Positions 9,690-59,643 of a DNA stretch of 64,000 nucleotides are shown here, piece after piece (position 1 is the first letter of the stretch; each line of letters begins with the position of its first letter). Where the stretch lies: assembly GCA_029259185.1 (NCBI GenBank), contig JAPDJF010000001.1, positions 9,156 to 73,155 of the forward strand. Reading direction: 5' to 3'. This stretch comes from Hadesarchaea archaeon (GTDB lineage: Archaea; Hadarchaeota; Hadarchaeia; Hadarchaeales; WYZ-LMO6). A program made the translations under genes and the position numbers. A model generated the notes under the pieces. The model was given only the letters and a program-made list of their open reading frames with translations, was not told where the DNA came from and made no database searches.

Positions 9690-10881
9690 GAACAGGGAGT
9701 ACCTGCGACCAACCTACACTCCCGAGAGACTCCCGCATCGTGAGGAACAGATCCACCAACTAGCTAGGATCTTGGTCGCCCCGCTTCGGGGGGAAACCCC
9801 GTCCAACATCTTCATTTACGGGAAGACGGGGACGGGAAAGACGGCGACAGTTAAGTACGTGATAAAGGAGCTGGAGAAGGTGGGAAAAGAGCTCCAGCGG
9901 AGGGTAGAGGGGATTTATGTAAATTGTGAGATGGTCAACACACGCTACAGGGTACTAGCAACCTTGGTGAATTGCTTGGTGGGAGGCGATAGGGGGGCTC
10001 GAGGCGTTCCAATGACTGGGTGGCCAACCGATGCGGTCTATGATTGCTTCCTCCGATCCCTTGACTCAACGGAGCGCGTGGTGGTGATAGTTATGGACGA
10101 AGTGGACAGGCTCGTTGCCAAGAACGGAGACGATGTGCTTTACGACTTGACCAGAATAAACTCAGAGCTTAGGAGCACTAAGGTGAGCGTCATCGGGATC
10201 TCAAACGATGCTAGGTTCACGACTTACCTTGATCCGCGGGTGAAAAGCAGTCTCGGAGAGGAGGAGATAGTTTTTCCTCCTTATAACGCGATCCAACTCA
10301 AAGACATTTTAGAGCAGAGGGCGTCGGAGGCTTTCAACCCAAGGGTCTTGGGGGAGGGCGTGATTCAGCTTTGTGCCGCCCATGCAGCGAGGGAGCATGG
10401 GGATGCGAGAAGGGCTCTTGATCTGTTGAGAGTAGCCGGAGAACTTGCGGAGAGGGATAATACTGGAATGGTGACGGTGGAGCATGTGAGGAGGGCATAC
10501 GAGAAAGTAGAGCAGGACAAAATGATGGAGCTCATAAGAACTCTCCCGAGCCAGTCGAAACTCGTGCTCTACAGCGTACTCTTGTTGACCGAAAAGGGGA
10601 GGAACAGGATAACGACGGGAGAGGTTTACGAAGCGTACAGGAGGATATGCAGGTCCGGTGGGGTGGACGTCTTGACCCCCCGCAGGGTGAGTGACCTCAT
10701 CTCAGAGTTAGACATGCTCGGAGTGATAAGCACCCAACTTATCAGCAGCGGGCGTTACGGTAGGACGAAAGAGATAGTCCTCAACATTTCTCCGGTTCAG
10801 CTTAGAGCGGCCTTGCAAGAAGATGACTCAATAAGCACTATCGACGTGCTCACGCTCCCACGTCAGCTGACGCTCATGTAG
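9661..10881 (+). CDS. cdc6: Cdc6/Orc1 replication initiator
   Basis: N-terminal motif YTPERLPHREEQI. Walker A IFIYGKTGTGKT. Walker B/sensor VVIVMDEVD. C-terminal winged-helix region. The start is chosen at the internal Met (MWLERKP) because the longer ORF overlaps the upstream gene. Confidence 0.9.
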   Translation: MWLERKPIFKNREYLRPTYTPERLPHREEQIHQLARILVAPLRGETPSNIFIYGKTGTGKTATVKYVIKELEKVGKELQRRVEGIYVNCEMVNTRYRVLATLVNCLVGGDRGARGVPMTGWPTDAVYDCFLRSLDSTERVVVIVMDEVDRLVAKNGDDVLYDLTRINSELRSTKVSVIGISNDARFTTYLDPRVKSSLGEEEIVFPPYNAIQLKDILEQRASEAFNPRVLGEGVIQLCAAHAAREHGDARRALDLLRVAGELAERDNTGMVTVEHVRRAYEKVEQDKMMELIRTLPSQSKLVLYSVLLLTEKGRNRITTGEVYEAYRRICRSGGVDVLTPRRVSDLISELDMLGVISTQLISSGRYGRTKEIVLNISPVQLRAALQEDDSISTIDVLTLPRQLTLM

Positions 10882-12423
10882 GTGGAGAAGGTGGATGGAG
10901 AGTTACTGGTTCGGAAATTCCGAGATGCAGACCTTTGCCTCACCCCGGAGGCTCTGGAGTTCCTCCTCAGAATGGAGGGCAAAGAGGTAGAGGAGCTCCT
11001 GGAGAAGCTGAAGAAGGTTCGTGATGGTCCTTTCGTTACTCCGGAGGTGTTGAGAAAAGCCCTAGGTCTTGAAGAGAAACCCTCCAAAGCGGAGGGAGAA
11101 GAGGGTGGAGCCACGGGTGGTCGCGCTCCGGAGAGAGGGTTAAAAGAGCTCTCTCATGGATCAAAACCCCTCGCGGCCGAGATAGATGCTAGGGTGGAGG
11201 TAATAAAGGACATAACCGGGAAGAGTTACAGCCGTGGGGAGATCAGGGATTTCTTGAGTCTATTCCGTGACCGTTACGAGCGTCTCAGCGCGCTTCTAAG
11301 GAGGCGAACAGATTTTCAGAATCCGGTTTATATTGAGGAGCTTGGGAGGATGGAAGGCGAGACGGTTACCGTTATAGGGATGGTAATGAGCAAGCGTGAA
11401 ACCTCCAGCGGACACCTACTGATCGAAATAGAGGACCTAACGGGGAGGGCGGCGGTTTGGGTTTTCAAGGGGCAGAGAGAGCTAATGCAGAAGGCCGGTG
11501 AGGTGGTACCGGATGAAGTCATAGGAGTAGAAGGAAACGTTCGTCCAGGCGATAAGATCCCCCGCATCCTAGCCAGAGACATAGTTTGGCCCGACCTGCC
11601 GACTCCGAGAGAACCAACGCGCGCTGACGAGCCTGTTTGTGCTGTGTTGATCTCCGATCTGCATGTGGGGAGCAAAATGTTTCTCGAAGACGTTTTCATG
11701 AGGTTCATTAAGTGGCTGAGGGGGGAGCTGGGAAATGCGGATCACCGCGAGCTCGCGGGTAGAACGAAGTATGTGGTTATAGCTGGGGATGTGGTGGACG
11801 GAATAGGTATCTATCCAAAACAGGAGGAAGAACTCTTGATCCATGATATCTTCAGACAGTACGAGGAGGCCGCGAGATTGCTGGAGCAGATCCCTGATCA
11901 TATAACAATAATAATCTCCCCTGGAAATCACGATGGGGTAAGACCCTCTGAACCTCAACCGGCTATTTCGAGGGAGGTGGGTGGACGATTGTATGAGCTG
12001 AATTCGGTCATGGTCGGAAACCCAGCTTGGGTTTCCCTCCACGGAGTTAAATTTCTGATCTACCACGGCAGGAGTTTTGATGACCTAGCGGCCACGGTGC
12101 CCGGGAGCAGCAGGAGCGATATTTCATCGATGATGATTAAACTATTACAAAAGAGACACATGGCCCCGGTCTACGGTGGGAGGGTAGCGGTGGTTCCGGA
12201 AGAAAAAGATTTCTTGGTGATAGAGGAAGTTCCAGATGTTTTTCACTGTGGTCACGCCCATGTTTACGGGCTCAAAAGCTATCGATCTGTCTGGGCGGTC
12301 AACTCGGGGACATTTCAGACGATGACTACTTACATGTGGGAGAGGGGGATAACTCCGACCCCCGGGATAATCACGGTGATGGATTTACAAAAAAATCAAC
12401 CGAAGGTGATAAGACTTGCGTGA
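10882..12423 (+). CDS. DNA polymerase II (PolD) small subunit DP1
   Basis: Calcineurin-like phosphoesterase motifs are present: ISDLHVG, AGDVVDG, GNHD, YHGRSFDD and CGHAHV. The N-terminal region is PCNA and DP2-interacting type. Length 513 aa. Confidence 0.9.
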   Translation: MEKVDGELLVRKFRDADLCLTPEALEFLLRMEGKEVEELLEKLKKVRDGPFVTPEVLRKALGLEEKPSKAEGEEGGATGGRAPERGLKELSHGSKPLAAEIDARVEVIKDITGKSYSRGEIRDFLSLFRDRYERLSALLRRRTDFQNPVYIEELGRMEGETVTVIGMVMSKRETSSGHLLIEIEDLTGRAAVWVFKGQRELMQKAGEVVPDEVIGVEGNVRPGDKIPRILARDIVWPDLPTPREPTRADEPVCAVLISDLHVGSKMFLEDVFMRFIKWLRGELGNADHRELAGRTKYVVIAGDVVDGIGIYPKQEEELLIHDIFRQYEEAARLLEQIPDHITIIISPGNHDGVRPSEPQPAISREVGGRLYELNSVMVGNPAWVSLHGVKFLIYHGRSFDDLAATVPGSSRSDISSMMIKLLQKRHMAPVYGGRVAVVPEEKDFLVIEEVPDVFHCGHAHVYGLKSYRSVWAVNSGTFQTMTTYMWERGITPTPGIITVMDLQKNQPKVIRLA

Positions 12424-17179: not shown

Positions 17180-17365
17180 TTACATCTTCTCCAACAGCTC
17201 GAAGAATTTTTCTCGAGTGAGCTCCGCCTCCCGGATTATCGCCCTCACAAGTGCTGGCTTGACCTCTTTGCCCGGATGAACTGGGACAACAGTGCGCATG
17301 TTCCCTTTCATCAGGATAACATGAGAACCCTTCCTTCTTACGACCTGAAATCCTTCATGGATCAA
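17180..17365 (-). CDS. hicA: HicA-family mRNA-interferase toxin
   Basis: The 61-aa sequence MIHEGFQVVRRKGSHVILMKGNMRTVVPVHPGKEVKPALVRAIIREAELTREKF matches the YcfA/HicA fold signature (GSH...PvH). Confidence 0.75.
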   Translation of the reverse strand: MIHEGFQVVRRKGSHVILMKGNMRTVVPVHPGKEVKPALVRAIIREAELTREKFFELLEKM

Positions 17366-17402
17366 TATTTTGATGAGCTTCTCAGCTGGAACGGGTCCGA
17401 TT

Positions 17403-17642
17403 TTAGGTATGAACCTCTACTTTTTGTAATCCTACAACTGACTGAGCCATTTTGAGAACTTCTGATTTCTCCTCTTCATCCAAGGTTTCTAGGTAGAGCT
17501 CAATCGCTTCTTCAACGTTTTTCATCAACTCTTCGAGCGTTTCGCCTTGCGTGTGGCACCCGGGTAGGGAAGGAACAAACGCCACATACCCGCCCGTTTC
17601 ATCTTTTTGAACCACGACATCAAACATCAATCTCTTGGCCAT
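17403..17642 (-). CDS. hicB: HicB-family antitoxin (UPF0150)
   Basis: The 79-aa sequence MAKRLMFDVVVQKDETGGYVAFVPSLPGCHTQGETLEELMKNVEEAIELYLE is the classic HicB N-domain. It lies directly upstream of hicA on the same strand. Confidence 0.75.
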   Translation of the reverse strand: MAKRLMFDVVVQKDETGGYVAFVPSLPGCHTQGETLEELMKNVEEAIELYLETLDEEEKSEVLKMAQSVVGLQKVEVHT

Positions 17643-17768
17643 GCTCTCTCCAACCGCTACTTTATGTGAATCTGAGTATAAAATCTATTTCTGGAAGTTC
17701 TAGACTCTGAATATTGCTCAACTTCCAGTTTGACAAGCAATTATAAGGGGTGTTGAGCCAGGAGGCAA

Positions 17769-18020
17769 GTGGGAGAAACCTCTGTCCCTTATACTTCTGG
17801 TGAGAAACCCACCGGCGAAAAGGCTTTGAAGGTGCTCACCTACTTCTTTGAGAACCCGCGAGAGGAAGTTTACTTGCGGGAACTGGCGCGCCGGCTACGG
17901 ATGAGCCCAGCAACTGTTATGCGAGCTCTGCGTCTCCTCATTAGAGAAGGCTTGATAACCAAGCGCCCGGAGAAGCACGCCACCTATTTCAAGGCCAACC
18001 TTAACAGTTATGTAAAGTAA
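17769..18020 (+). pseudogene. 5-prime (winged-HTH) half of an HTH-nucleotidyltransferase (MNT) gene disrupted by an IS630 insertion
   Basis: YLRELARRLRMSPATVMRALRLLIREGLITKRPEKHATYF is homologous to the N-terminus of the intact 186-aa paralog at 57559-58119 (YVRELAEKLGLSPSKVSVASRALELQGILKSEERGLAKFY). The ORF terminates 14 nt before the IS left end. Confidence 0.55.
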
Positions 18021-18033
18021 CAGAACTTCAAAG

Positions 18034-19105
18034 TTGTAAAGTATTTATATTTCAATAGGAAACGAGAGATAGGGCGATGAGACAGCTGTTTGTCAGAAGG
18101 CTCACCAAGCGGGAGAGGGACTTCGTTTACAGACTCATCGAGGACAAGCGGTACAGAGCGCGGGGGCTCGTGATCGCGCTGAGCTACGAGGGCTATCCTG
18201 TAGACATGATTGCTAGAAAGGTCAATATGCACCCGGTCAACGTGAGGAAGTGGATACGGAGGTTCAACCGATCCGGTGTCGAGGGCATTGCTCCCCAGAA
18301 GGTCGGGAGGAAGCCGAAGCTGGACAAGCGGACGGAGGATCGGATCGTCGCGATCGCGCTGATCGACCCGGAAGCGCTGGGGCTCCGATTCTCGACTTGG
18401 AGCCTGCGCAAGCTGAGCGCCTATCTGAGATCAAGGGGGATAGCCGACCTGAGCCACACCCAGCTCAGAACCATCCTGACGAGCAGGGGGTTGAGGTTCA
18501 GGCGGAGCAGGGCCAAGCTCATTTCCCGAGACCCCGAGTACGAGGCCAAAAAGCGCAGAATTCAGCGCCTGCTGAGACACCCCAACTGCAGGGTCATGTT
18601 CGAGGACGAGAAGCGTCTGGTGGCCAAGGAGTACGGCGGGTGAAGCTGGTGTAGGAAGGCAAAAGTGGTGGAGCTGAACCAGCGGACGCGGGGGAAGGAG
18701 ATTCTCTTCGTCGCCTACGACCCGCACCGGCATCGGATCGTGAGGCGGTACACACCGAACATGCACGCGCGGTGCTTTGTCGAGTTCCTGAAGCTCCTGT
18801 CGCGCACGACCGACGAGGACATCTATCTGATCTTGGACAACCATCCATCTCATCGCTCGAGGGAGGCCGGGGAGGTGTTCGCGAAGGGCAAGATAAAGCC
18901 CGTGTGGTTGCCGAAACATGCGCCCGAGCTGAACGATGTGGACAAGATCATCTTCTCTCTTCTTCAGCGGGAGGTCATTCAGAACCGGAAGTTCAGGTCG
19001 CTCGATGAGATGGAGCGATGCATCGACCGATGGATAAGAGGGTTCAACTCCTCACACAGAATAAATCCAAGTTTACAAAATTGAAGCACAATTATTTTAC
19101 AATAC
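18034..19105 (+). mobile_element. IS630/Tc1-mariner family insertion sequence, about 1.07 kb, with imperfect terminal inverted repeats
   Basis: The left end TTGTAAAGTATTTATATTTCAAT pairs with the reverse complement of the right end, TTGTAAAATAATTGTGCTTCAAT. The interior is markedly more GC-rich than the flanks. It encodes an IS630-type transposase. Confidence 0.65.
18077..19084 (+). CDS. IS630-family transposase (HTH plus DDE_3 domains), interrupted by a single in-frame TGA at 18641-18643
   Basis: The N-part (188 aa) carries HTH and pairing domains. The C-part (139 aa) is the DDE region (ILFVAYDPHRHRIV...LILDNHPSHRS...LPKHAPELNDVDKIIFSLLQREV). Both parts are in the same frame and are separated only by the TGA (EYGG*SWCRKAKVVEL). 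Confidence 0.7.
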
Positions 19106-19127
19106 TCTTAACCCATGCTTCAGAGAG

Positions 19128-19457
19128 TTGAAGAAAGCGTATACGGTTTCCAAAATCTTGCGCTCCGGAGTCCTTGGACTCCTCAGCGAGAAATCGGTTG
19201 GTCTGAGTTCAATACTGCTCTACGGTAGCGCTGCTAAGGGTGAAGACGACCGAGAAAGCGATTACGACTTTTTGGTAATCGCCGCAAGATGTACCGCGAA
19301 AAGTAGTGAGCTCTTGAGGCTCCTAGGAAGAGAGGTCACCCTGCAGGTCTTCGACGCAGCGGGCTGGAAGCGAGTAGCAAAACGAAATCGAGCATTCTAC
19401 CTAGACGTTATAAGCAGCTCCATTGTCCTTTATGGTGAAAAGCCGGTGATCGATTGA
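19128..19457 (+). pseudogene. 3-prime (nucleotidyltransferase) half of the IS-disrupted HTH-MNT gene
   Basis: LLYGSAAKGEDDRESDYDFLVIA is the minimal-nucleotidyltransferase motif GSx9-13Dx[DE]. It is homologous to the C-half of the 57559-58119 paralog (IAVYGSYASGTNDEKSAIKLLVIS). It starts 23 nt after the IS right end. Confidence 0.55.
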
Positions 19458-19467
19458 CGCTTAGGGA

Positions 19468-19668
19468 TTGTTTCGCGCTGACAAAGTGGCGGATGCTTAC
19501 ATCTGCAAGGTAACATCCGTAGGTCAAATAACCTTACCAAAAGAAATTAGAAAGGAGCTAAACATCAAAGGAGACGATTTCGTTATTTTGGAGAAAATCG
19601 GGAAAACATATTTTCTCAGAAAGGTCGGGATCGAGAAAGACATTTTGAAAAAATTAGGGCACGAGTGA
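19468..19668 (+). CDS. AbrB/SpoVT (swapped-hairpin) domain protein, likely a VapB/MazE-like antitoxin
   Basis: The 66-aa sequence contains VTSVGQITLPKEIRKELNIKGDDFVILEK, which is the looped-hinge helix pattern. Confidence 0.5.
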   Translation: MFRADKVADAYICKVTSVGQITLPKEIRKELNIKGDDFVILEKIGKTYFLRKVGIEKDILKKLGHE

Positions 19669-28725: not shown

Positions 28726-29277
28726 ATGGGGGGGCGGAAAGGGATCAAGAGAGTTTTCATCCCACTTGTGAAGAACGATTTTATCTATGAGGTACTTTCC
28801 TTCTTTCTTTGCATCGGTATCTTGTACTTTTCCCATCAGGGAATCCTGATGTTGGCCCTGGACTGCGATACCCCCCTCATGCCTGTCATCTCGAATAGCA
28901 TGCAACACCACAGCGAGAGCTGGAAAGTACCATACGAGCAGATGGGTTATGACCCCTCCCAGTTTCCGTTTCAGGGGGGATTCGAGAGGGGCGATCTTCT
29001 TGTGATAAAGGGTGTAGATTCACCTAGTGAGATATCGGTCGGAGATGTGGTGGTATACCAGCGAGTGCCGGGTACGATACCGGTGGTGCATAGGGTGCTA
29101 TCGAAGTCAGAAGACGGACAGATCATCGTCCTGAAAGGGGATGCGAATTCGAGTCCGGATCCGAGCATATCTTTCGAGATGGTTAGGGGAAAGGTGATAT
29201 TGGCAATCCCTAACCTCGGTTGGTTCTCTATATCAGTTTGGAAGTACAGATGGCTTTGCACAAAAATTAGCCCCTGA
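28726..29277 (+). CDS. Signal peptidase I, archaeal Sec11-type
   Basis: N-terminal TM segment. Catalytic Ser box VISNSMQH. The GDLLVIKG and KGDANSSPD boxes are present. Confidence 0.7.
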   Translation: MGGRKGIKRVFIPLVKNDFIYEVLSFFLCIGILYFSHQGILMLALDCDTPLMPVISNSMQHHSESWKVPYEQMGYDPSQFPFQGGFERGDLLVIKGVDSPSEISVGDVVVYQRVPGTIPVVHRVLSKSEDGQIIVLKGDANSSPDPSISFEMVRGKVILAIPNLGWFSISVWKYRWLCTKISP

Positions 29278-30406
29278 GGCCAATTTCCGTGCTTGGGGGC
29301 TCGGAGTCCCCCTCAAGGGCCGAAAGCCCTACGGCCCCGTCCCTGAGCCAGTGGCCCAGGAACCTCTCTCCAATGTTTATGGCTCCGTTGAGGTCGGCGT
29401 TGTACTCGAGGCCACACGAGGGACATTTGAAGAAGCCTTGAGAGACCCTTCGTCCTTCGTTTCCGCAGCGGTGGCACGTTCGGCTGGTGTACGCCTCGCC
29501 GGCGTGCACCACGGGGATCCCCTCCCAGAGAGCCTTGTACTCGATGTACCTTGACAGCCGGTGGTGGGGCATCGAGTGCACGATGCGCCTGAACCTCCGC
29601 CCCTTTGCCCGCTTGCGGATTCCCTTCAGATCTCCTATCACGATAACCGAGTTCCGCTCCTTAGCTTCGCTGACGATAGCCCTTGAGATCTTGTGGCACA
29701 GGTCGTCTATTCGCCGGCGCTCCGTTCTGCCTATCCGCTTGATCACCCGCAGTAGCTTGCGCTCGCCGAGTCGCTTTCGGAGCCAAGCGTAGTGGCGCCT
29801 TATCCCCCTTGCTTCCTTCCCGTAGAGCTTGGGGGAGGTGATGTTGGCCTCCTTCTGCAGCGCCACAGACGCCGCGAGAAAGCGCTCCCCCAAGTCCACT
29901 GCGAGGACGCCGGAGGGACGCATCGGCTTGACCCTACGCTTGACCGTGAGGTGGAGGAAGAACCTCCCGTTGCGGTGGACGAGCTGTGAGTCGGAGATCT
30001 CAACCCTACCCGAGGAGAGAAGCTCCTCGTGGGAGCGCCACATCCGCAGCGGGCACCAGATGCGCCCGCCGGGGGTTGAAACGGATACGAAAAACCTGGC
30101 GAACCTGTTTCCGGTGTCGGTGAGCTTGAATGAGTCCTTATCGATGAGGATGGGAGCCTTCCGCCTGTCCCCGGCCTTCCAAGCTAAAGCACGGCAGTAG
30201 TAGGAGGGCAACCTCGTTTGCTCTCTCAGAGTCCGGTAGTCCCTCTCAAGGGCCTGGGCGCGATCCCACTCGGCTTGGAGGTCCTCCAGAAGCTTGCGCT
30301 TGAACCGGGTGAGGCCGTAGAGTTCAGCCCTTATCGTCTTGGAGACCAACATCGAACGTGGTCTGTCGGAACCATTTTAAGTTTTCCGGTATTTTTGTGC
30401 AAAGCG
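29252..30406 (-). mobile_element. TnpB-only transposon, 1155 bp, with 15-bp perfect TIRs (GCTTTGCACAAAAAT) and a 9-bp TSD (AGTACAGAT)
   Basis: AGTACAGAT occurs at 29243-29251 and at 30407-30415, directly abutting the inverted termini GGCTTTGCACAAAAAT ... ATTTTTGTGCAAAGCG. The element encodes a single full-length TnpB. Confidence 0.75.
29267..30352 (-). CDS. tnpB: TnpB (OrfB) RuvC-like RNA-guided endonuclease family protein, apparently intact
   Basis: Length 361 aa. RuvC-I VLAVDLGE. Zinc finger CHRCGNEG...CPSCG. RuvC-III YNADLNGAINIG. Confidence 0.85.
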   Translation of the reverse strand: MLVSKTIRAELYGLTRFKRKLLEDLQAEWDRAQALERDYRTLREQTRLPSYYCRALAWKAGDRRKAPILIDKDSFKLTDTGNRFARFFVSVSTPGGRIWCPLRMWRSHEELLSSGRVEISDSQLVHRNGRFFLHLTVKRRVKPMRPSGVLAVDLGERFLAASVALQKEANITSPKLYGKEARGIRRHYAWLRKRLGERKLLRVIKRIGRTERRRIDDLCHKISRAIVSEAKERNSVIVIGDLKGIRKRAKGRRFRRIVHSMPHHRLSRYIEYKALWEGIPVVHAGEAYTSRTCHRCGNEGRRVSQGFFKCPSCGLEYNADLNGAINIGERFLGHWLRDGAVGLSALEGDSEPPSTEIGLRG

Positions 30407-30464
30407 AGTACAGATGAAAGATTTATTGGTACCCAAGTGAGTAGATTTAGCTTGGAGGCAGGCG

Positions 30465-30785
30465 ATGAGGTTCTGCAAGAAATGTGGTGGTCTGATGGTT
30501 CCCAAGAAGAGTGGGGGAAAGAACGTATTGCTTTGTGAGATGTGTGGAGAGACGGAGGAGGCCGATAGCTCCGGCTACACGTTGGTTCGAAAAGTTGAGG
30601 AAAAAGCGGAAGTGGTGGTGATTGAGAATGAGCCTTCTACCTTGCCGACCACACGCGCCAAGTGTACTAAATGTGGGAATGACAAAGCGTATTGGTGGAT
30701 GAGACAGACGAGGAGTGCGGACGAGCCCTCTACTCGATTCTACAGGTGTACCAAGTGCGGGAATACATGGAGGGAATACGCATAG
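30465..30785 (+). CDS. tfs: Transcription factor S (TFS) / RNAP subunit M
   Basis: N-terminal ribbon MRFCKKCGGLMVP...CEMCG. C-terminal TFIIS-type ribbon CTKCGNDKAYWWMRQTRSADEPSTRFYRCTKCGNTW. Confidence 0.8.
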   Translation: MRFCKKCGGLMVPKKSGGKNVLLCEMCGETEEADSSGYTLVRKVEEKAEVVVIENEPSTLPTTRAKCTKCGNDKAYWWMRQTRSADEPSTRFYRCTKCGNTWREYA

Positions 30786-38455: not shown

Positions 38456-40183
38456 TTAGAAGCTCCTGTATCGATTGGTGATGGGCATCTTACGATCTTT
38501 CCCCAGTGCCCGAGGAGTGATCTTTACGCCTGGGGGCGCTTGCCTGCGCTTGTATTCGTTCCTGTCGACCATGGTTACAACTTTTCTCACGGTTTTTTCA
38601 TCGAACCCAAGATTCAAGATTCCCTCGTATGGGACATCATCTTCCACGTAAGATTTCAGGATAGGATCGAGAACCTCATACGGGGGAAGGGTGTCTTGAT
38701 CTTTCTGGTTCGGTCTCAGTTCGGCACTCGGAGGTTTTTCTAACACCCTTTGCGGTATAACAGGGGATAAGGAATTTCTGTACAGTGCTAGTCTGTAAAC
38801 CCTCGTCTTGAACACATCCTTTAGAACTGCGAAGCCACCCGCCATGTCTCCGTAGAGGGTGGCATAACCCACACTCATCTCACTTTTGTTTCCAGTAGTC
38901 AAGACGAGGGAGCCGAACTTATTCGAAAGCGCCATGAGTATGTTGCCCCTTATCCTCGCTTGGATGTTCTCCTCCGTTACATCCGGTTTTTCCTGTTTGA
39001 AAACCTCTGAGAGACTCCGGAGGTATGCATCAAAAATGCCCTCTATAGAAATTGTGATAGTCTTTATCCCTAGATTCTCTGAAAGTTCCAGCGCATCTTC
39101 CACGGACTCCCTCGAGGTGTAGCGGGAGGGCATGAGAACACCTGTGACGTTTTCTCTTCCAAGAGCATCCACAGCGATGGCGGCAGTTAGAGATGAGTCA
39201 ATACCTCCGCTCAATCCGATGAGCACCCCTTTGAAGCCATTTTTTCTCACATAGTCTCTCGTCCCAACAACGAGTGCTTTGTATACCTCTTCGTCCTCCT
39301 GGAGCGGGCTCGTGAGGCTCGTTTTTATCCGAGGCTTGCTCCTTCGTGCAACTTTCTTTAGCTTTATGGTAACGACCTCTTGATCCCCCTTAAATTTCAG
39401 GATTTCTTTCCGCCTCCGAGGGTCGTGAAGCCTCGTCCTGAACACGGACTCGGGATTAACGTCGACCACGAGGAGCTCTTCTTCGAAAGCCTTCGCCCTA
39501 GCAGTGATTTCACCGCATTCGTTCACCACGAAGCTCTGACCATCGAAAACGAGCTCATCTTGTCCCCCCACCATGTTCACATAAGCTATGATGAGTTCGT
39601 TGTCGAACGCCCTTGTGGAGATCATCTTCTCCTTCAGGTTCCTCTTTCCTGCGTGGTAAGGGGATGCATTGAGGTTGATGGCTATCTGTGCCCCGGCCAG
39701 GGACTGAACGTGCACCGGTCCTTTCGGGTACCAAATATCTTCGCATATGCTTACTCCTATCCTCACCCCGTCCAGTTCAAAAATAACATTCTTGTCTCCA
39801 GCTTGGAAGTAACGATCCTCGTCAAATACACCATAGTTGGGGAGGAACATCTTGTGGTATATCCCAGCGAGTTCACCATCATGGATTAGAGCGGCAGCGT
39901 TATAGATGTCATCACTTTTGTCCACGAAACCGACGAGTGCGGTTATCCCGACGCACTTTTCCTCGATCTTTTCCAGAGTTTTGATGTTATCCTTTATGAA
40001 CTGAGGCTTGAGCAGTAGGTCCTCGGGAGGATATCCGGTCAAACACAGCTCCGGGAATGCTATCAGGTCAACTCCGAGCCTCTTGCCTTCTTCTACTCGC
40101 TTTAAGATTTTTTTTCTGTTTCCTTCTAGATCCCCAACCACTGGGTTTATCTGAGCCAGTCCGATCCTCATTTTATCGACCAC
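38456..40183 (-). CDS. nadE: Glutamine-dependent NAD+ synthetase (CN-hydrolase plus NAD synthetase domains)
   Basis: N-terminal nitrilase-like domain ([12 protein letters not shown]...FPEL). C-terminal PP-loop GLSGGIDSS. Length 575 aa. Confidence 0.85.
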
Positions 40184-40232
40184 AGCTTCACATAGTCTTC
40201 CACTCGTTCAAAATAAGTCTTTCAGAGACCTC

Positions 40233-40823
40233 TGCTTTGCACAAAAATACCGGAAAACTTAAAATGGTTCCGACAGACCACGTTCGATGTTGGCCTCCAA
40301 GACGATAAGAGCTGAACTCTACGGCCTCACCCGGTTCAAGCGCAAGCTTCTGGAGGACCTCCAAGCCGAGTGGGATCGCGCCCAAGCCCCTTGAGAGGCC
40401 GGACTCTGAGAGAGCAAACGAGGCTGCCCTCCTACTACTGCCGTGCTTTAGCCTGGAAGGCTGGCGATGGGCGGAAGGCTCCCATCCTCATCGATAAGGA
40501 CTCATTCAAGCTCACCGACACCGGAAACAGTTCGCCAGGTTTTTCGTATCCGTTTCAACCCCCGGCGGGTGTACGCCGGCGAGGCATACACCAGCAAATG
40601 TGCCACTGGAAACGAAGGACGAAGGGTCTCTCAAGGCTTCTTCAAATGCTCGTCGTGTGGGCTGGAGTACAACGCCGACCTCAACGGAGCCATAAATATT
40701 GGAGAGGGGTTCCTGGGCCACTGGCTCAGGGACGAAGGCGTGGGGCTTTCGGCCCTTAGGGGATCCCGAGCCCCCAAGCACGGAAATTGGCCTCAGGGGC
40801 TAATTTTTTTTGTGCAGAGCCAG
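40233..40823 (+). mobile_element. MITE-like internally deleted derivative of the TnpB transposon, about 590 bp, with both TIRs and a 9-10-bp TSD (AGAGACCTC(T))
   Basis: Left end tGCTTTGCACAAAAATACCGGAAAACTTAAAATGG... Right end ...GGCCTCAGGGGCTAATTTTTTTTGTGCAGAGCC. The flanking direct repeat AGAGACCTCT lies at 40224-40233 and 40824-40833. Only the 5-prime and 3-prime parts of tnpB remain. Confidence 0.7.
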
Positions 40824-40835
40824 AGACCTCTCAGG

Positions 40836-42383
40836 TCACTCCCACTCTATGGTAGCTGGAGGCTTGTGGGTGATGTCGTATACCACCCGGCTTACTTGGG
40901 GGATCTCGTTAGTGATTCTCGTGGAGATCCTCTCCATAAGGTCATGGGGTAATTTTGCATAGCTCGCCGTCATTCCATCCACACTCTCAACCGCTCTTAT
41001 GGCTACTGTGTATCCGTACGCTCTCGCATCCCCTTTCACACCCGTGGATTTCGTGTCCAAGAGAACCGCGAAATATTGCCAGAGGGATCCCTTAACTTCA
41101 TGCTTTTCGATTTCCTCCCTCACTATTGCATCCACCCTCTTGAGTATCTCGATCTTCTCCTTAGTCACCTCACCGATTATCCTTATGGCCAATCCAGGGC
41201 CGGGAAAAGGCTGTCTGTTCACTATACTTTCGGGTATTCCAAGGGATCGGGCTATTTTCCTGACCTCGTCCTTGTATAACTCTCTCAAGGGTTCCACCAC
41301 CCCCTTGAACTTGATTTCGGTCGGGAGACCACCCACGTTGTGATGGGTTTTTATCTTCTCGGAGTGTTTCGAAGCCCCTGACTCTATCCTGTCCGGATAG
41401 ATCGTTCCTTGGATGAGGTATTCCGCCTCGCTCTCTTCTGCTACTTTCTCGAACACATGGATGAATTCTTCCCCGATGATCTTCCTCTTAAGCTCGGGAT
41501 CGCTTACCCCCCTGAGCTTTTCCATAAACCGTTTTCGTTCGTCTAAGACGAGGAGATTCATCCCAAGCTCGGTAAAAGTCTTCTTTATACTCTCTGGTTC
41601 CCCCTCCCTCATGAATCCGTGGTCAACGAAGACGGCTGTCAAATTTCTCCCCACGGCCTTAGCGGCTAGCACAGCAGCTGTGCTTGAGTCTATTCCACCA
41701 CTCAGGGCGATGATACATTTCGAGTTTCCAACCTTTTCCCTGATCTCCTCAACGCACTTTTTCACGAAGTTTTCGGGTGTCCAGTTCGGAACACATCCAC
41801 ATATCTCGAAAAGGAAGTTCCTCAGCAACATCTTTCCTCTGGGTGTGTGGACGACCTCGGGGTGCCACTGGACTCCATAGAGGGGTTTGTGTCTGTGGCG
41901 GAACGCAGCTACTGGGCAATTTTCGGTGTGTGCGAGTATCTCAAACTCTTCGGGCATTTCGTACACGGTGTCTCCATGGCTTGTCCAAACTCTCTCGACC
42001 TTTTGGTGTCCTTTCAGCAAGGTGTCGGTTACATCCACATAGACTTCGGTGATACCGTATTCCATTTTGTCTCCCTTCCTCACATCACCCCCCATGTAAT
42101 GGGCTACCAGCTGGTGACCATAGCATATCCCCAAGATGGGCAACCCCATCTCGAGTATTTCCTTCCGGCATCGGGGAGCCCCTTTCTCATAGATGCTGGA
42201 GGGCCCTCCCGAGAGGATGATCCCTTTCACCGAGTATTCATCATCAAAAGATCGAATCTCCTCGGGCGTGATATCCGGAGGGACGATCTCGGCATACACC
42301 TCCTCTTCCCTGATTCTCCGTTTGATCAAGTGGCAGTACTGCCCGCCGAAGTTCAAGACAAGCACGACATCAGTTTTCATCAA
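40836..42383 (-). CDS. guaA: GMP synthase (glutamine-hydrolysing), full-length with GATase and ATP-PPase domains
   Basis: GATase catalytic region GICYGHQL. PP-loop SGGIDSS. C-terminal dimerisation domain. Length 515 aa. Confidence 0.9.
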   Translation of the reverse strand: MMKTDVVLVLNFGGQYCHLIKRRIREEEVYAEIVPPDITPEEIRSFDDEYSVKGIILSGGPSSIYEKGAPRCRKEILEMGLPILGICYGHQLVAHYMGGDVRKGDKMEYGITEVYVDVTDTLLKGHQKVERVWTSHGDTVYEMPEEFEILAHTENCPVAAFRHRHKPLYGVQWHPEVVHTPRGKMLLRNFLFEICGCVPNWTPENFVKKCVEEIREKVGNSKCIIALSGGIDSSTAAVLAAKAVGRNLTAVFVDHGFMREGEPESIKKTFTELGMNLLVLDERKRFMEKLRGVSDPELKRKIIGEEFIHVFEKVAEESEAEYLIQGTIYPDRIESGASKHSEKIKTHHNVGGLPTEIKFKGVVEPLRELYKDEVRKIARSLGIPESIVNRQPFPGPGLAIRIIGEVTKEKIEILKRVDAIVREEIEKHEVKGSLWQYFAVLLDTKSTGVKGDARAYGYTVAIRAVESVDGMTASYAKLPHDLMERISTRITNEIPQVSRVVYDITHKPPATIEWE

Positions 42384-42660: not shown

Positions 42661-43440
42661 GTGCTTAGCCACAGGTTCTGCTTGTATCCTTCAAAGACAG
42701 CCGAGCGCGCTCTGAATCGACACATGGCACTTTGCAGGTGGCTCTACAACCGCCTGCTCTCGGAGCTGAACTTGGTGAGGGAGAAGGGAATGAGGCTGAG
42801 AGACACCCAAGCCTTGATCGTTGACCTGAAAAAGCACGAGAAGCCTGAACTCAACGAGGTGCACTCAAGAGTTTTACAGATGGTCAGCTCTGGTCGAACG
42901 TTCGTGCTCTTGCTTGGCTGAAGCGGAGCGGTAAAAAAATCGAGAAGTTGTGGTTCAAGGGAAGGGGCTGGTTCAAGACGCTGAACTACAACCAGTCGGG
43001 GTTCAAGCTTGAGAGCGGAAAGCTCGCCCTCTCGAAAATCGGGGAAATCCCCATCAAGCTCCACCGAAAGATTGAGGGAAAAGTGAAGGGGGTTATCTGT
43101 CAAGCGCGAACGCTAGGGCAAGTGGCACGCGATATTTCAGGTGGAGGGGGAATTGGAACCCCTGCCGAAGACGGGCAAGGCGGTCGGGATCGATGTCTGA
43201 TCAAGCGCTTCCTGAGCCTCAAGAACCCGCGCTTCTACGAGCGAACACTTGAACGGATAAGGGTGAGGCAAAAACAGTTGTCTAAGAAGCGGGAGGGTTC
43301 AGCCAACAGGAGAAAAGCTCGATCTTCTCAACTTTTTTGGGGAAGGCCTCAGTCCGCCCATCATCAAATCATCGCTGGGCTCAAAGGTACCGTGACATCA
43401 TCGGCGAATGATTTTTGTCTTGGATCCATAAATCCTTGTC
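42661..43440 (+). pseudogene. Degraded TnpB/OrfB-like gene of a second family, with frameshifts and a truncated C-terminus
   Basis: The N-terminal signature HRFCLYPSKTAERALNRHMALCRWLYNRLL is the TnpB N-terminal pattern. The middle part is in another frame. KAVGIDV (RuvC-I) is readable only in a third frame and is followed by a stop. The zinc-finger and RuvC-III C-terminus is absent. Confidence 0.5.
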
Positions 43441-43442
43441 GG

Positions 43443-43814
43443 CTACACCACTTCGAGGAGAAGCTTCTCTTCATTTGGAGCGTATACGGCTATGTTGGTT
43501 TCTCCGTATGGATATGCGACGATCATGAGCAATCGTCCGAATGTGTAGTTCATATCGTGTGCGGAGGGAATCAAGATGCCAGAGGGATGTGAGTGAACGC
43601 TCCCCATTATTGAGGGATCCAAGGGAAGTGCATGTAGGGGGAACCCGGCGAAATCTCTACCCCGGGTGACGAATGGGGGAAAGAGAAATTCAGTTAATTC
43701 GACCACCCCTCTCTTCGATTTTCCCCGCAGGAGGAGAAGCATTTCTTTTGGGTGCATATCCCCGGCATTTTTTAGGATGAGACTCAGTAGCTCTCTGTCG
43801 ATTCGGACTCTCAC
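43443..43814 (-). CDS. JAMM/MPN-family metalloprotease (Mov34-like)
   Basis: JAMM motif HSHPSGILIPSAHD (HxHx7Sx2D). Length 123 aa. Confidence 0.65.
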   Translation of the reverse strand: MRVRIDRELLSLILKNAGDMHPKEMLLLLRGKSKRGVVELTEFLFPPFVTRGRDFAGFPLHALPLDPSIMGSVHSHPSGILIPSAHDMNYTFGRLLMIVAYPYGETNIAVYAPNEEKLLLEVV

Positions 43815-44689: not shown

Positions 44690-44798
44690 GCCCCGGTGGT
44701 GTAGACCGGTCAAGGAGGAAGCTCCGCCGAAATCATACAGCCCTTTCGAGCAACGAGGACAGGCTGTGACGTGGGTTCAAATCCCGCCCGGGGCACCA
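44690..44798 (+). tRNA. tRNA-Glu (anticodon UUC) with two putative introns: about 19 nt in the D-loop (44714-44732) and 12 nt at the canonical 37/38 position (44749-44760). CCA is encoded
   Basis: With both inserts removed, the sequence GCCCCGG-UG-GUGUAGACCGGUCAA-UCAU-A-CAGCC-CUUUCGA-GGCUG-UGAC-GUGGGUUCAAAUCCCGC-CCGGGGC-A-CCA matches the canonical archaeal tRNA-Glu. Without splicing, the D-arm and anticodon stem cannot form. Confidence 0.55.
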
Positions 44799-57558: not shown

Positions 57559-58119
57559 GTGGATCTGTTCAAAAAATATGCGGATTTTTTGCTGCTGAGT
57601 TTTTTCCTCCAAAATCCAACGGGCCAGTTCTATGTAAGAGAACTGGCTGAGAAGTTAGGGCTCAGTCCCTCTAAGGTGAGTGTGGCTTCCAGAGCACTCG
57701 AACTTCAAGGGATATTGAAAAGTGAAGAAAGAGGATTGGCCAAATTTTACAGACTCAACAATGACGTTCCGTTGGTGAAGGCTTTTAAGGTCGTTCACAG
57801 TTTAGCGAAACTCAGCGAAGCTAAGCTCGTCGAAAAACTCTTAGAAAGAGATCCGTCCATAATCTCGATCGCGGTTTATGGAAGCTATGCATCTGGAACG
57901 AACGATGAGAAAAGTGCCATCAAGCTCTTGGTGATCAGTCAGAAAGAAAAAGAAGTGTTTCTAGAGGTATTGAGGAGCATCGAGGAACGTCATGGGATCC
58001 GGCTTGATCTGGAAGTACTCAAGCTCGGGGAGTGGAGAGATCGGGTGAAAAAAAGTGATTCCCTCTATCGAGAAGTTCTTTCCGCCCACATCTTGCTCTT
58101 CGGTTCGAACCTCATCTGA
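57559..58119 (+). CDS. HTH plus minimal nucleotidyltransferase (MNT) protein, the intact paralog of the IS-split gene at 17769/19128
   Basis: N-terminal winged HTH. NT motif IAVYGSYASGTNDEKSAIKLLVIS. Confidence 0.6.
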   Translation: MDLFKKYADFLLLSFFLQNPTGQFYVRELAEKLGLSPSKVSVASRALELQGILKSEERGLAKFYRLNNDVPLVKAFKVVHSLAKLSEAKLVEKLLERDPSIISIAVYGSYASGTNDEKSAIKLLVISQKEKEVFLEVLRSIEERHGIRLDLEVLKLGEWRDRVKKSDSLYREVLSAHILLFGSNLI

Positions 58120-58330: not shown

Positions 58331-58741
58331 TCATCCTTTGGATAGTTCCTTCTCTATGGCCTTTATGAATTCCTTAGCAGAATCCATTGCTCCTTTAGCA
58401 TCGCTTCGTTTGACAGATAATGTGGGGTCACTATAGATGGCTGAGACGAATCGATTGAACTGATCTAAAGAGGTCACGTGCTCTCTCAGCTCAGGGTATC
58501 GACACCGAAGATACTCGATCATCGTTTGTCTTTCAACCTCGCTCACCCCATTTCTGAAGAGGAGAGCCCTAGCGGCATGAAACATGGAGATGAGCGAGGC
58601 CACCACGGCCATGTCCCGGTATCCTAGAGCATTGCTATCTTTCGCCCGCTTTAACCATTCTTTTGCAACTTTCAGGGATCTCATACTCATGTTCAACGGC
58701 AAAACCAATTTGAATTGCGTCTCAAAATTTAAAAATTTCAA
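58331..58741 (-). CDS. HEPN-domain protein, the toxin-type partner of MNT
   Basis: LKVAKEWLKRAKDSNALGYRDMAVVASLISMFHAARALLFRNG is the HEPN helical pattern. It is convergent with the MNT gene. Confidence 0.55.
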   Translation of the reverse strand: MKFLNFETQFKLVLPLNMSMRSLKVAKEWLKRAKDSNALGYRDMAVVASLISMFHAARALLFRNGVSEVERQTMIEYLRCRYPELREHVTSLDQFNRFVSAIYSDPTLSVKRSDAKGAMDSAKEFIKAIEKELSKG

Positions 58742-58748
58742 ACTTTGG

Positions 58749-59185
58749 CGCTTTGCACAAAAATACCGGAAAACTTAAAATGGTTCCGACAGACCACGTT
58801 CGATGTTGGCCTCCAAGACGATAAGAGCTGAACTCTACGGCCTCACCCGGTTCAAGCGCAAGCTTCTGGAGGACCTCCAAGCCGAGTGGGATCGCGCCCA
58901 GGCCCTTGAGAGGGACTACCGGACTCTGAGAGAGCAAACGAGGCATCCACCAGCCGAACGTGCCACCGCTGCGGAAACGAAGGACGAAGGGTCTCTCAAG
59001 GCTTCTTCAAATGCTCGTCGTGTGGGCTGGAGTACAACGCCGACCTCAACGGAGCCATAAATATTGGAGAGGGGTTCTTGGGCCACTGGCTCAGGGACGG
59101 GGGCGTGGGGCTTTCGCCCCTTTAGGGGATCCCGAGCCTCCAAGCACAAAAATTGGCCTCAGGGCTGATTTTTTTGTGCAGAGCC
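58749..59185 (+). mobile_element. Second MITE-like deletion derivative of the TnpB transposon, 437 bp, with TIRs and a 9-bp TSD (AAACTTTGG)
   Basis: AAACTTTGG lies at 58740-58748 and 59186-59194. Ends are cGCTTTGCACAAAAATACCGG... and ...TTTTTTTGTGCAGAGCC. The interior retains only the tnpB 5-prime fragment (MLASKTIRAELYGLT...) and the 3-prime fragment (…CSSCGLEYNADLNGAINIGEG…). Confidence 0.7.
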
Positions 59186-59299
59186 AAACTTTGGTTCCGT
59201 AAAAGTTTTTGAGGTAATCTCATTAATCTCGCTGGTCAAGGCAGGTGGGTGCGACAAAATCCCATGAGGTGATGTGAATGAGCCCCAGAACAAACCCAA

Positions 59300-59509
59300 A
59301 TGCCCGCCCCTGCGGAGCAGGGTTCTTGGAAGGTCGGCTTAAGCCAAAGCAAGAGGCGAGTCTACAAGTGTAGTTCTTGTAGAAAGAGGTTCAATGAGCG
59401 GGTGGGAACGCCGTTCCATGGACTGCACTTCCCAGAGGGGGGCCGGGTATTTCACGTAACAGGTGCGCCCCATCAGGGGCTGTCGAGTTACGATGTGGGT
59501 GCACTGTGA
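59300..59509 (+). pseudogene. Transposase N-terminal zinc-ribbon fragment (IS1/IS1595-like)
   Basis: YKCSSCRKRFNERVGTPFHGLH resembles transposase zinc-ribbon domains. Only 69 aa with no catalytic domain. Confidence 0.3.
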
Positions 59510-59643
59510 CCTGAAATTTTGCTCCAAGCTTTTTTACGGAACCCAAACTTTGGGATAATCCCAAAGTTTGGAGAAGCCCCCCAAACTCTGGAGAAAGAGG
59601 AAAGAAAATGGGAAAAAAAGAAGAAAAAAATTCGTTTTCTTTT

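Follow-up and report, generated by a model that had tools for sequence, protein, structure and literature searches.

In a 64,000-nucleotide stretch of DNA from a Hadesarchaea archaeon (GenBank assembly GCA_029259185.1, contig JAPDJF010000001.1, positions 9,156 to 73,155; hereafter the window, whose own numbering is used unless another contig is named), the spacer between nadE and guaA contains a 589-bp tnpB-derived segment (40233-40821) that was recognised by reading the sequence alongside a list of its open reading frames (ORFs). Judged from its sequence, this segment derives by internal deletion from a non-autonomous mobile element of 1.16 kb and no longer encodes a working protein; the same window includes a full-length copy of the element and a second deleted copy. 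Such decay is ordinary in itself, and the interest of the locus lies in the type of its parent and in the RNA module that the copy has retained. As an account of the whole, we consider it probable that this is a deleted copy of a tnpB element with a 9-bp target-site duplication, mobilised by an IS6-like DDE enzyme acting in trans, in which the RNA module has been kept.

A deleted tnpB element between nadE and guaA

The genes on either side of the segment are both encoded on the minus strand: nadE (38456-40183), with the Pfam domains CN_hydrolase and NAD_synthase, and guaA (40836-42383), with GATase and GMP_synt_C domains. The boundaries of the tnpB copies were set by a repeat search across the whole window and a three-way alignment of the copies. 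In this alignment, 40233-40821 is a collinear two-block match to the full copy at 29252-30406, with approximately 94% identity and one gap, which bears out the claim of a preliminary description of this DNA that an internally deleted derivative of a tnpB element lies between nadE and guaA. The proportions given there need revision, as the copy keeps 337 nt of the 5′ side (40233-40569) instead of about 150 nt, and what is missing is 51% of the ORF by alignment (556 bp, 29511-30066 of the full copy, not a multiple of three) instead of its central two-thirds. The 3′ part is retained along with its terminal inverted repeat, as had been described, but measures 252 nt (40570-40821) where about 200 nt had been given. 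At the deletion junction (40569-40570, plus strand), similar CCCCG..GG contexts share a GG microhomology of 2-3 nt. The 556-bp deletion between these short GG/CCCCG microhomologies removed codons ~96-281, including those for the RuvC-I and RuvC-II motifs.

What remains of the coding sequence is damaged further, since additional indels of 4, 1 and 5 nt break the tnpB frame in the alignment, introducing a stop after 35 codons and destroying the first CxxC of the zinc finger. By alignment and translation, the 5′ remnant (40287-40569, plus strand) corresponds to parent codons 1 to ~95 and carries the 1-nt insertion that leads to the stop, while the 3′ remnant (40570-40803, plus strand) runs from GEAYTS through the damaged zinc finger, the RuvC-III motif NADLNGA and the C-terminal tail to a TAA codon at 40801-40803. 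An ORF at 40467-40952 is nevertheless recognised by the Pfam model Cas12f1-like_TNB (6.5e-9). A TATA-like box, CTTAAAATGG (40258-40267, plus strand), with the purine-rich GGAAAA in front of it, lies approximately 20 nt upstream of the tnpB ATG. This region is the same in all three window copies and is a putative archaeal promoter for a nearly leaderless tnpB mRNA.

Both ends of the element are well defined. The left terminal inverted repeat, TGCTTTGCACAAAAA (40233-40247, plus strand), opens with a T where the other two copies have a C, and the right repeat, which reads GGCTCTGCACAAAAA as its reverse complement (40807-40821, minus strand), begins with the GGnnnTG motif (as defined in PMC6807381); these 15-nt sequences agree at 13 of 15 positions. 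All three copies start with (C/T)GCTTTGCACAAAAA and finish with TTTTTGTGCA(A/G)AGCC. When the 14-mer GCTTTGCACAAAAA was searched across the window with up to two mismatches, six sites were found, which are the six ends of the three copies, against 0.3 expected from shuffled sequence. Directly outside these ends lies the duplication AGAGACCTC (40224-40232 and 40822-40830, plus strand), and the guaA stop codon (40836-40838, minus strand) is located 5 nt past its right copy. A flanking direct repeat of 9-10 bp had been described previously; it is a perfect 9-bp repeat, and the tenth shared base, a T, takes the place of the C that opens the other two copies.

The flanking 9-bp repeats are genuine target-site duplications that reflect insertion at a staggered cut, because each window copy, and a related element from another archaeon, has its own distinct 9-mer at the same offsets. 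The full copy is flanked by a perfect 9-mer, ATCTGTACT, at 29243-51 and 30407-15, and the second deleted copy (58749-59185) by another, AAACTTTGG, at 58740-48 and 59186-94, where the chance of such identity is approximately 4^-9 per copy. The related element, L006, lies on a 258-kb contig, encodes a TnpB that is 62% identical, and combines a perfect 14-nt inverted repeat (GGTTCTCTTCGGAA) with a 9-bp duplication (TAACTAGCC). A further relative, L008 (TnpB 64% identical), has a flanking repeat of 8-10 bp, so that five independent insertions (three in the window, L006 and L008) carry duplications of 8-10 bp. Elements L007 and L010 feature inverted repeats and no clean duplication, but are on short contigs that may be assembly chimeras and were excluded as evidence on duplications. 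The earlier worry that the repeat at the nadE-guaA copy is coincidental is thus answered by the 9-bp repeats around the other two copies and L006. The companion proposal, that the two halves are independent partial insertions, was also rejected: the halves share one orientation, follow the parental order in a collinear alignment with a single junction, are bounded on the outside by identical 9-mers, and belong to an architecture that recurs in two more copies. We assign a negligible probability to either form of this explanation.

Together, the inverted repeats and duplications place the element outside the canonical IS200/IS605 and IS607 families. IS200/IS605 elements insert 3′ of a 4-5-nt site (PMC4810608, PMC13565253), and members of both families are devoid of inverted repeats and duplications (PMC4810608, PMC13565253, PMC3119063). 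It could be argued that this is a canonical IS200/IS605 element of the IS1341 type moved by a Y1 TnpA, whose repeats are parts of subterminal hairpins and whose 9-bp flanking repeats are incidental. Such elements normally carry TnpB (PMC4810608, PMC10691335), a homologue with 47% identity (P0098) is fused or adjacent to a Y1 domain, and there is a hairpin in the right end. However, Y1 elements lack the terminal inverted repeats and duplications (PMC4810608, PMC13565253), whereas duplications of 8-10 bp were found here at five independent insertions; in addition, no same-strand hairpin at the left end corresponds to the one at the right, and the window contains no tnpA. We therefore consider a Y1-mobilised element very improbable.

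The full-length parent and its RNA module

The full-length element (29252-30406, minus strand) measures 1,155 bp. It comprises, besides a left inverted repeat of 15 nt, a putative archaeal promoter, a nearly leaderless tnpB gene of 361 codons (ORF 29267-30352) and a four-hairpin module of ~115 nt. A TATA-like box occurs at the equivalent place in the relatives L006, L007, L008 and L010. The TnpB protein matches Cas12f1-like_TNB (2.6e-23) and OrfB_IS605 (1.5e-6) in Pfam, and comparison with solved Cas12f and TnpB structures identified the RuvC-I Asp, the RuvC-III Asp (within NADLNGA) and the CxxC..CxxC zinc finger, whereas the RuvC-II Glu is replaced by Gly. An alignment of 20 homologues shows no variation at D153, G240, D320 or the four Cys; the Gly is a family trait and not a symptom of decay. 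It resembles the RIIr clades, which a published survey describes as rearranged, with another Glu proposed as substitute (PMC10691335). The parent encodes TnpB only and is hence non-autonomous as well, and no transposase with matching ends was found in the element or elsewhere in the 64-kb window. When viral contigs were searched with the TnpB protein and with the 20-sequence alignment, nothing was found.

Two further observations concern the full copy. Its insertion replaced the C-terminus and stop codon of an adjacent gene for a 183-aa protein (28726-29277, plus strand), which now ends 26 nt inside the right inverted repeat of the element. A counterpart of the full copy in another assembly of the same organism (L016, positions 9926-11096 of its contig) is identical at both ends and differs from 29252-30406 at 26 positions, including frameshifts, all of which fall within 29511-30075, the segment that is deleted in the nadE-guaA copy. 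These differences could mean that the assembly is chimeric with a different copy from the genome, that gene conversion took place, or that the strain is a variant whose tnpB is dead.

The second deletion derivative (58749-59185, plus strand) is 437 bp long and lacks 718 bp (parent 29489-30206), with a CGAGG microhomology at its junction. The 3′ breakpoints of the two deletions are approximately 20 nt apart (29511 and 29489) and both copies keep the last ~230-250 nt of the element, which could be due to a recombination-prone GC-rich stretch (GCCGGCGAGGCG) or to a minimum 3′ requirement.

The last ~115 nt of the element are predicted to fold into four successive hairpins that overlap the last ~40 codons of tnpB and end 6 nt before the right terminus. 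In the nadE-guaA copy, RNAalifold and RNAfold place this module (hairpins H1-H4 and a 6-nt tail, AGAGCC) at 40709-40821 on the plus strand. H4 takes its 3′ arm from the inner half of the right inverted repeat, after which comes the 6-nt tail (AAAGCC or AGAACC elsewhere). The same four hairpins are found in the window copies and in L006, L007, L010, L008, L011 and L012-15, despite their differing sequences and C-terminal tails, and a covariance model built from six sequences gives matches over its full length in all of these, with the one in the nadE-guaA copy (40641-40821) scoring 177.6 bits. On the model alignment, 88.7% of cells are compatible with pairing, compared with 74.8% after shuffling and at most 59% when partner columns are slid. 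Compensatory changes affect 20 of 31 pairs among 11 distinct sequences, although it counts against these figures that the alignment was fitted to the model and that the sequences represent only about six independent lineages. For these two reasons we regard the case for an omega-RNA-like scaffold as good, though short of conclusive. No Rfam family matched the four-hairpin module.

Neither deleted copy has lost its inverted repeats, its promoter or any of the four hairpins, and the second one has A-U in place of two G·U pairs of H4. Since these parts survive, the nadE-guaA copy could still be mobilised or be transcribed into an omega-RNA-like molecule, whose predicted guide would be the guaA-proximal flank (AGAGACCTCTCAGGTC...). 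An earlier suggestion that the 3′ part may yield such a transcript thereby gains support from the conservation of the structure.

An IS6-like enzyme as candidate mobiliser

None of the copies encodes a transposase, the full-length parent included, which agrees with the earlier proposal that a transposase acting in trans is needed; we infer that such an enzyme exists. The ends of the element and a neighbouring transposon remnant give indications of its type. The window ends read GGCTTTG and GGCTCTG, and the right ends of L007, L008 and L010 read GGTTCTG. The inverted-repeat consensus of the IS6/IS26 family is GGTTCTGTTGCAAA, with a GGnnnTG hallmark that is common to IS1 (Harmer and Hall, PMC6807381). 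Archaeal members of IS6 generate 8-bp and occasionally 9-bp duplications, and ISfinder lists 9 bp for ISH15 and ISPfu5 (PMC6807381).

The remnant, which we call element X (59193-59543, plus strand), is a 351-bp IS6-like transposon fragment next to the second deleted tnpB copy, with inverted repeats GGTTCCGTAAAA and an 8-9-bp duplication, CAAACTTT(G). Its repeats closely resemble those of the tnpB elements L007 and L010, AGGTTC(C/T)GGTAAG. The motif CAAACTTTGG occurs three times at this locus (58739-48, 59185-94 and 59544-53), so element X and the second deleted tnpB copy must have hit the same few base pairs one after the other. Element X has an ORF of 69 aa that corresponds to the N-terminal ~70 codons of a zinc-ribbon transposase and that, taken alone, weakly matches the IS1/IS1595 zinc domain. 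A full HMMER scan of 1.8 billion representative proteins identified homologues that include P0262 (294 aa, 56% identical over 39 aa), in which the same N-terminal zinc ribbon is followed by an IS240/IS6-type DDE domain (DDE_Tnp_IS240 in Pfam, 1e-11; NCBIfam IS6 transposase, 2.4e-28, which is below the curated cut-off). Also beside the second deleted copy are two convergent genes for an MNT-like nucleotidyltransferase with a winged helix-turn-helix (57559-58119, plus strand) and a HEPN protein (58331-58741, minus strand).

On this circumstantial evidence, the best candidate for mobilising the tnpB elements in trans is an archaeal IS6-like DDE transposase with an N-terminal zinc ribbon, of which element X would be a remnant. 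This candidate is favoured because of the GGnnnTG ends and because an IS6-like remnant lies in the same target site. The model predicts that a gene combining the zinc ribbon with an IS240-type DDE domain would sit between inverted repeats GGCTTTGCACAAAAA or GGTTCCGTAAAA. As there is no IS240/IS6 gene inside it, the tnpB element is not a member of IS6 and would only be a possible substrate.

Several points weigh against this account. Within the 64-kb window there is no intact IS6-like transposase and no transposase-bearing element with the exact inverted repeats. IS6-family duplications are usually 8 bp whereas those observed here are 9 bp, the window repeats match the IS6 consensus, which is a bacterial one, at 9 of 14 positions, and the left terminus opens with C or T instead of G. 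The IS1 family and the IS903 group of IS5 also join GG-starting ends with 9-bp duplications (PMC10569121). Furthermore, an empty nadE-guaA site was not recovered, as the nearest guaA genes are at most 75% identical and not beside nadE; the closest guaA from a named organism, "Candidatus Hadarchaeales", has 73% identity. Taken with the archaeal gene content and the tRNA with an intron-sized insert described below, this match suggests that the host is an uncultured archaeon, probably within or close to Hadarchaeota.

The enzyme could therefore come from a different family that makes 9-bp duplications and has ends beginning with GG, for instance IS1 or the IS903 group of IS5. Duplications of 9 bp accompany both the inverted repeats GGCTTTGTTGAATAAATC of IS903B and the GGTGATG.. 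ends of ISKpn14, an IS1-family element (PMC10569121), and IS903 starts with the same 7 nt, GGCTTTG, as the right end of the full copy. The target motif WTTYA-N9-TRAAW (PMC2577343) is faintly similar to the TTTC|A on the left of the three window duplications, although the right flanks lack the symmetric TRAAW half, and the element X ORF and its homologues weakly match the IS1/IS1595 zinc domain and IS1 transposase models. Against this, the window contains no IS5- or IS1-type gene, the GGTTCTG ends of the relatives are those of the IS6 consensus (PMC6807381), and the sole related on-site transposase remnant has homologues with an IS240/IS6-type catalytic domain. The IS903 group was favoured at first and was downgraded on account of the IS6-like remnant and the GGTTCTG ends; we now regard an enzyme of this kind as rather unlikely.

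An IS630-like transposase gene of the window (18077-19084, plus strand) was also evaluated as the mobiliser and rejected, because the IS630 family duplicates only TA. This gene is split into a helix-turn-helix (HTH) part (18077-18643; HTH_32 and HTH_29) and a DDE_3 part (18665-19084), with no clear inverted repeats found around it, and is part of an island (17180-19668) that follows tRNA-Ser and tRNA-Thr genes and includes HicA/HicB-like, AbrB-like and nucleotidyltransferase genes.

Deletion history, target sites and related elements

The nadE-guaA copy has the hallmarks of a miniature inverted-repeat transposable element (MITE), namely inverted repeats, a 9-bp duplication and a length of 589 bp with only a broken tnpB. 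The preliminary description took the independent duplication as proof that the copy had transposed after its deletion and called this classic non-autonomous MITE behaviour. Its non-autonomy stands, and MITE behaviour is possible but unproven, given that the breakpoints are not shared. The claimed order of events does not follow, as the private duplication dates the insertion and not the deletion, and no shared junction was found: the two short copies of the window, whose breakpoints the description had proposed to compare, differ. When an ORF spanning the junction was compared with ~5.8 billion protein clusters, the only match (P0130) was this locus, and those cluster members of the exact TnpB that are on record represent the same loci only. 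Scanning genome contigs with the 20-nt left end returned five unrelated bacterial chance matches and no new copies, and scanning metagenome contigs with a 34-nt left end returned one contig, which is the full-copy locus, and no new copies. The insertion is also present at this site in three other assemblies of the same organism, whose contigs end within the element. The window copies differ from one another by ~5-6%, so there is nothing pointing to a recent burst.

A true MITE would have arisen by deletion in a master copy, after which the 589-bp element would have been moved into the nadE-guaA spacer by a transposase in trans. This reading accommodates the preservation of both inverted repeats and a perfect duplication, and ISfinder includes MITEs of the IS6 family (PMC7986276). 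The two short derivatives within 64 kb, which keep the promoter and the last ~250 nt and whose 3′ breakpoints are ~20 nt apart, could reflect a requirement for the 3′ module. The contig breaks within the element in the three other assemblies are as expected for a repeated sequence, but the three known copies already account for these. The differing breakpoints, the recovery of this locus alone with the junction ORF and the level of divergence between copies all argue in the other direction, and we consider prior deletion possible but doubtful. The failure to find this junction in a second copy makes decay in place no less likely, and we judge it somewhat more likely that the deletion occurred in place than before insertion.

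The insertion sites have a shared arrangement, in which the left (tnpB 5′) end faces the outward promoter of a neighbouring gene. BRE/TATA-like promoters (BRE, B recognition element) lie 4-7 nt from the duplication at the three window copies (30416-30467, 40171-40223 and 58688-58739) and at L006 (9876-9900) and L008 (890-908). At the nadE-guaA copy this is the nadE promoter, GAAAGAC followed by TTATTTTG (40209-40223, minus strand), which adjoins the left duplication and places its TATA box 45 nt from the nadE ATG at 40171; the corresponding TATA-to-ATG distances are 43 nt for a TFS-like gene and 45 nt for the HEPN gene. The bases directly 5′ of the left duplication are TTTC at each of the three window copies, CCTT at L006 and TTTT at L008. 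In an empty site, TTTC would hence precede the sequence that follows the right end. The motif could be a target-adjacent motif (TAM) of TnpB, a preference of the transposase, or a sign that insertions are tolerated nowhere but in the short neutral gap separating a stop codon from the next promoter, and five sites cannot separate these options.

This geometry raises the question of whether the deleted copies are guide-only satellites that use the TnpB of the full copy to cut empty alleles and home into them. The promoter region is identical and all four hairpins are kept in both deleted copies, the G·U to A-U changes in H4 of the second deleted copy fit a maintained structure, and the placement of TTTC is that of a TAM plus target. 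Yet TTTC was seen at three sites only, with CCTT and TTTT at L006 and L008; it is the complement of the BRE-like GAAA of the neighbouring promoters and may mark spots where insertion is tolerated, and the retained coding parts of the nadE-guaA copy are decaying by indels. We consider homing satellites improbable on this balance. Equally improbable in our estimation is a broader scenario, in which a tnpB-plus-omega-RNA cassette was captured between IS6-like ends in Hadarchaeota-like archaea and was spread by a DDE transposase in trans, possibly replicatively, with derivatives that act as guide-only satellites homing into TTTC sites upstream of host promoters. If true, this scenario would separate the role of TnpB from the rescue of scarless-excision transposons.

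Returning to the probable account of a tnpB element mobilised in trans by an IS6-like enzyme, the element can be compared with several known systems. A 2023 survey (Altae-Tran et al., PMC10691335) reports DDE-associated TnpBs with inverted terminal repeats, along with solo TnpBs that have the same ends and are presumably moved in trans. As in those systems, tnpB lies here between symmetric inverted repeats, with its 3′ end less than 250 bp from the transposon end (15 bp in this case). Unlike those systems, it has no transposase in any copy seen, a 9-bp duplication and IS6/IS1-like ends. A 2026 review names ISL2, IS630 and IS1031 as DDE partners of TnpB (PMC13565253), which duplicate 2-3 bp. 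Our literature search, which excluded the supplementary tables of the 2023 survey, found no paper linking TnpB with IS6-like ends.

The IS6/IS26 family and its archaeal relatives share with the element short GGnnnTG repeats, duplications of 8-9 bp, abundance in archaea and known MITEs (PMC6807381, PMC7986276), and an IS6-like remnant lies beside one tnpB copy in the same target site, but the cargo here is tnpB with a structured RNA, the duplication is consistently 9 bp and the left terminus is C or T. There is also a likeness to IS1341-group elements and to the palindrome-associated transposable elements (PATEs) of haloarchaea, which are core-deletion derivatives of IS605-type elements (PMC3119063): TnpB is the only protein encoded, a structured RNA covers the 3′ end of its gene, and short repeats bound the core deletions. 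Terminal inverted repeats and a duplication are both absent from IS605-type elements and PATEs, whereas the tnpB element has both (PMC3119063, PMC4810608). Eukaryotic transposons that carry Fanzor are comparable in that a TnpB-type nuclease is a passenger of DDE-moved elements with inverted repeats and duplications (PMC3627910, PMC10530073), and differ from the present case in its archaeal host, small prokaryotic TnpB and lack of a transposase in cis. A deletion derivative such as the nadE-guaA copy is thus nothing unexpected, although it stems from a less usual carrier.

TnpB is thought to be useful to its carriers by restoring elements that excise scarlessly, such as IS200/IS605 and IS607, and to our knowledge links between TnpB and DDE transposons are rare in prokaryotes. 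The type of the parent matters for this reason: in several archaeal lineages, a solo tnpB with an omega-RNA-like module lies between IS6/IS1-like repeats and is flanked by 9-bp duplications. Were the element moved by an IS6-like copy-in enzyme, the benefit of TnpB would have to differ from donor repair and could, for example, be homing into empty alleles of polyploid archaea. The three copies give a testable TAM prediction, TTTC, and two of them represent natural "RNA-only" derivatives.

The window has a further, unrelated tnpB in a degraded state just upstream of guaA (42661-43592, plus strand). This gene begins with an HTH_OrfB_IS605 N-terminus, continues with frameshifts and is cut off by an opposite-strand gene for a JAB-domain protein (43443-43814); no inverted repeats or duplication were found around it. 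Finally, a 106-nt tRNA gene at 44690-44795 (plus strand), which scored 41 bits with Rfam and was missed by ARAGORN, is probably an intron-containing archaeal tRNA.

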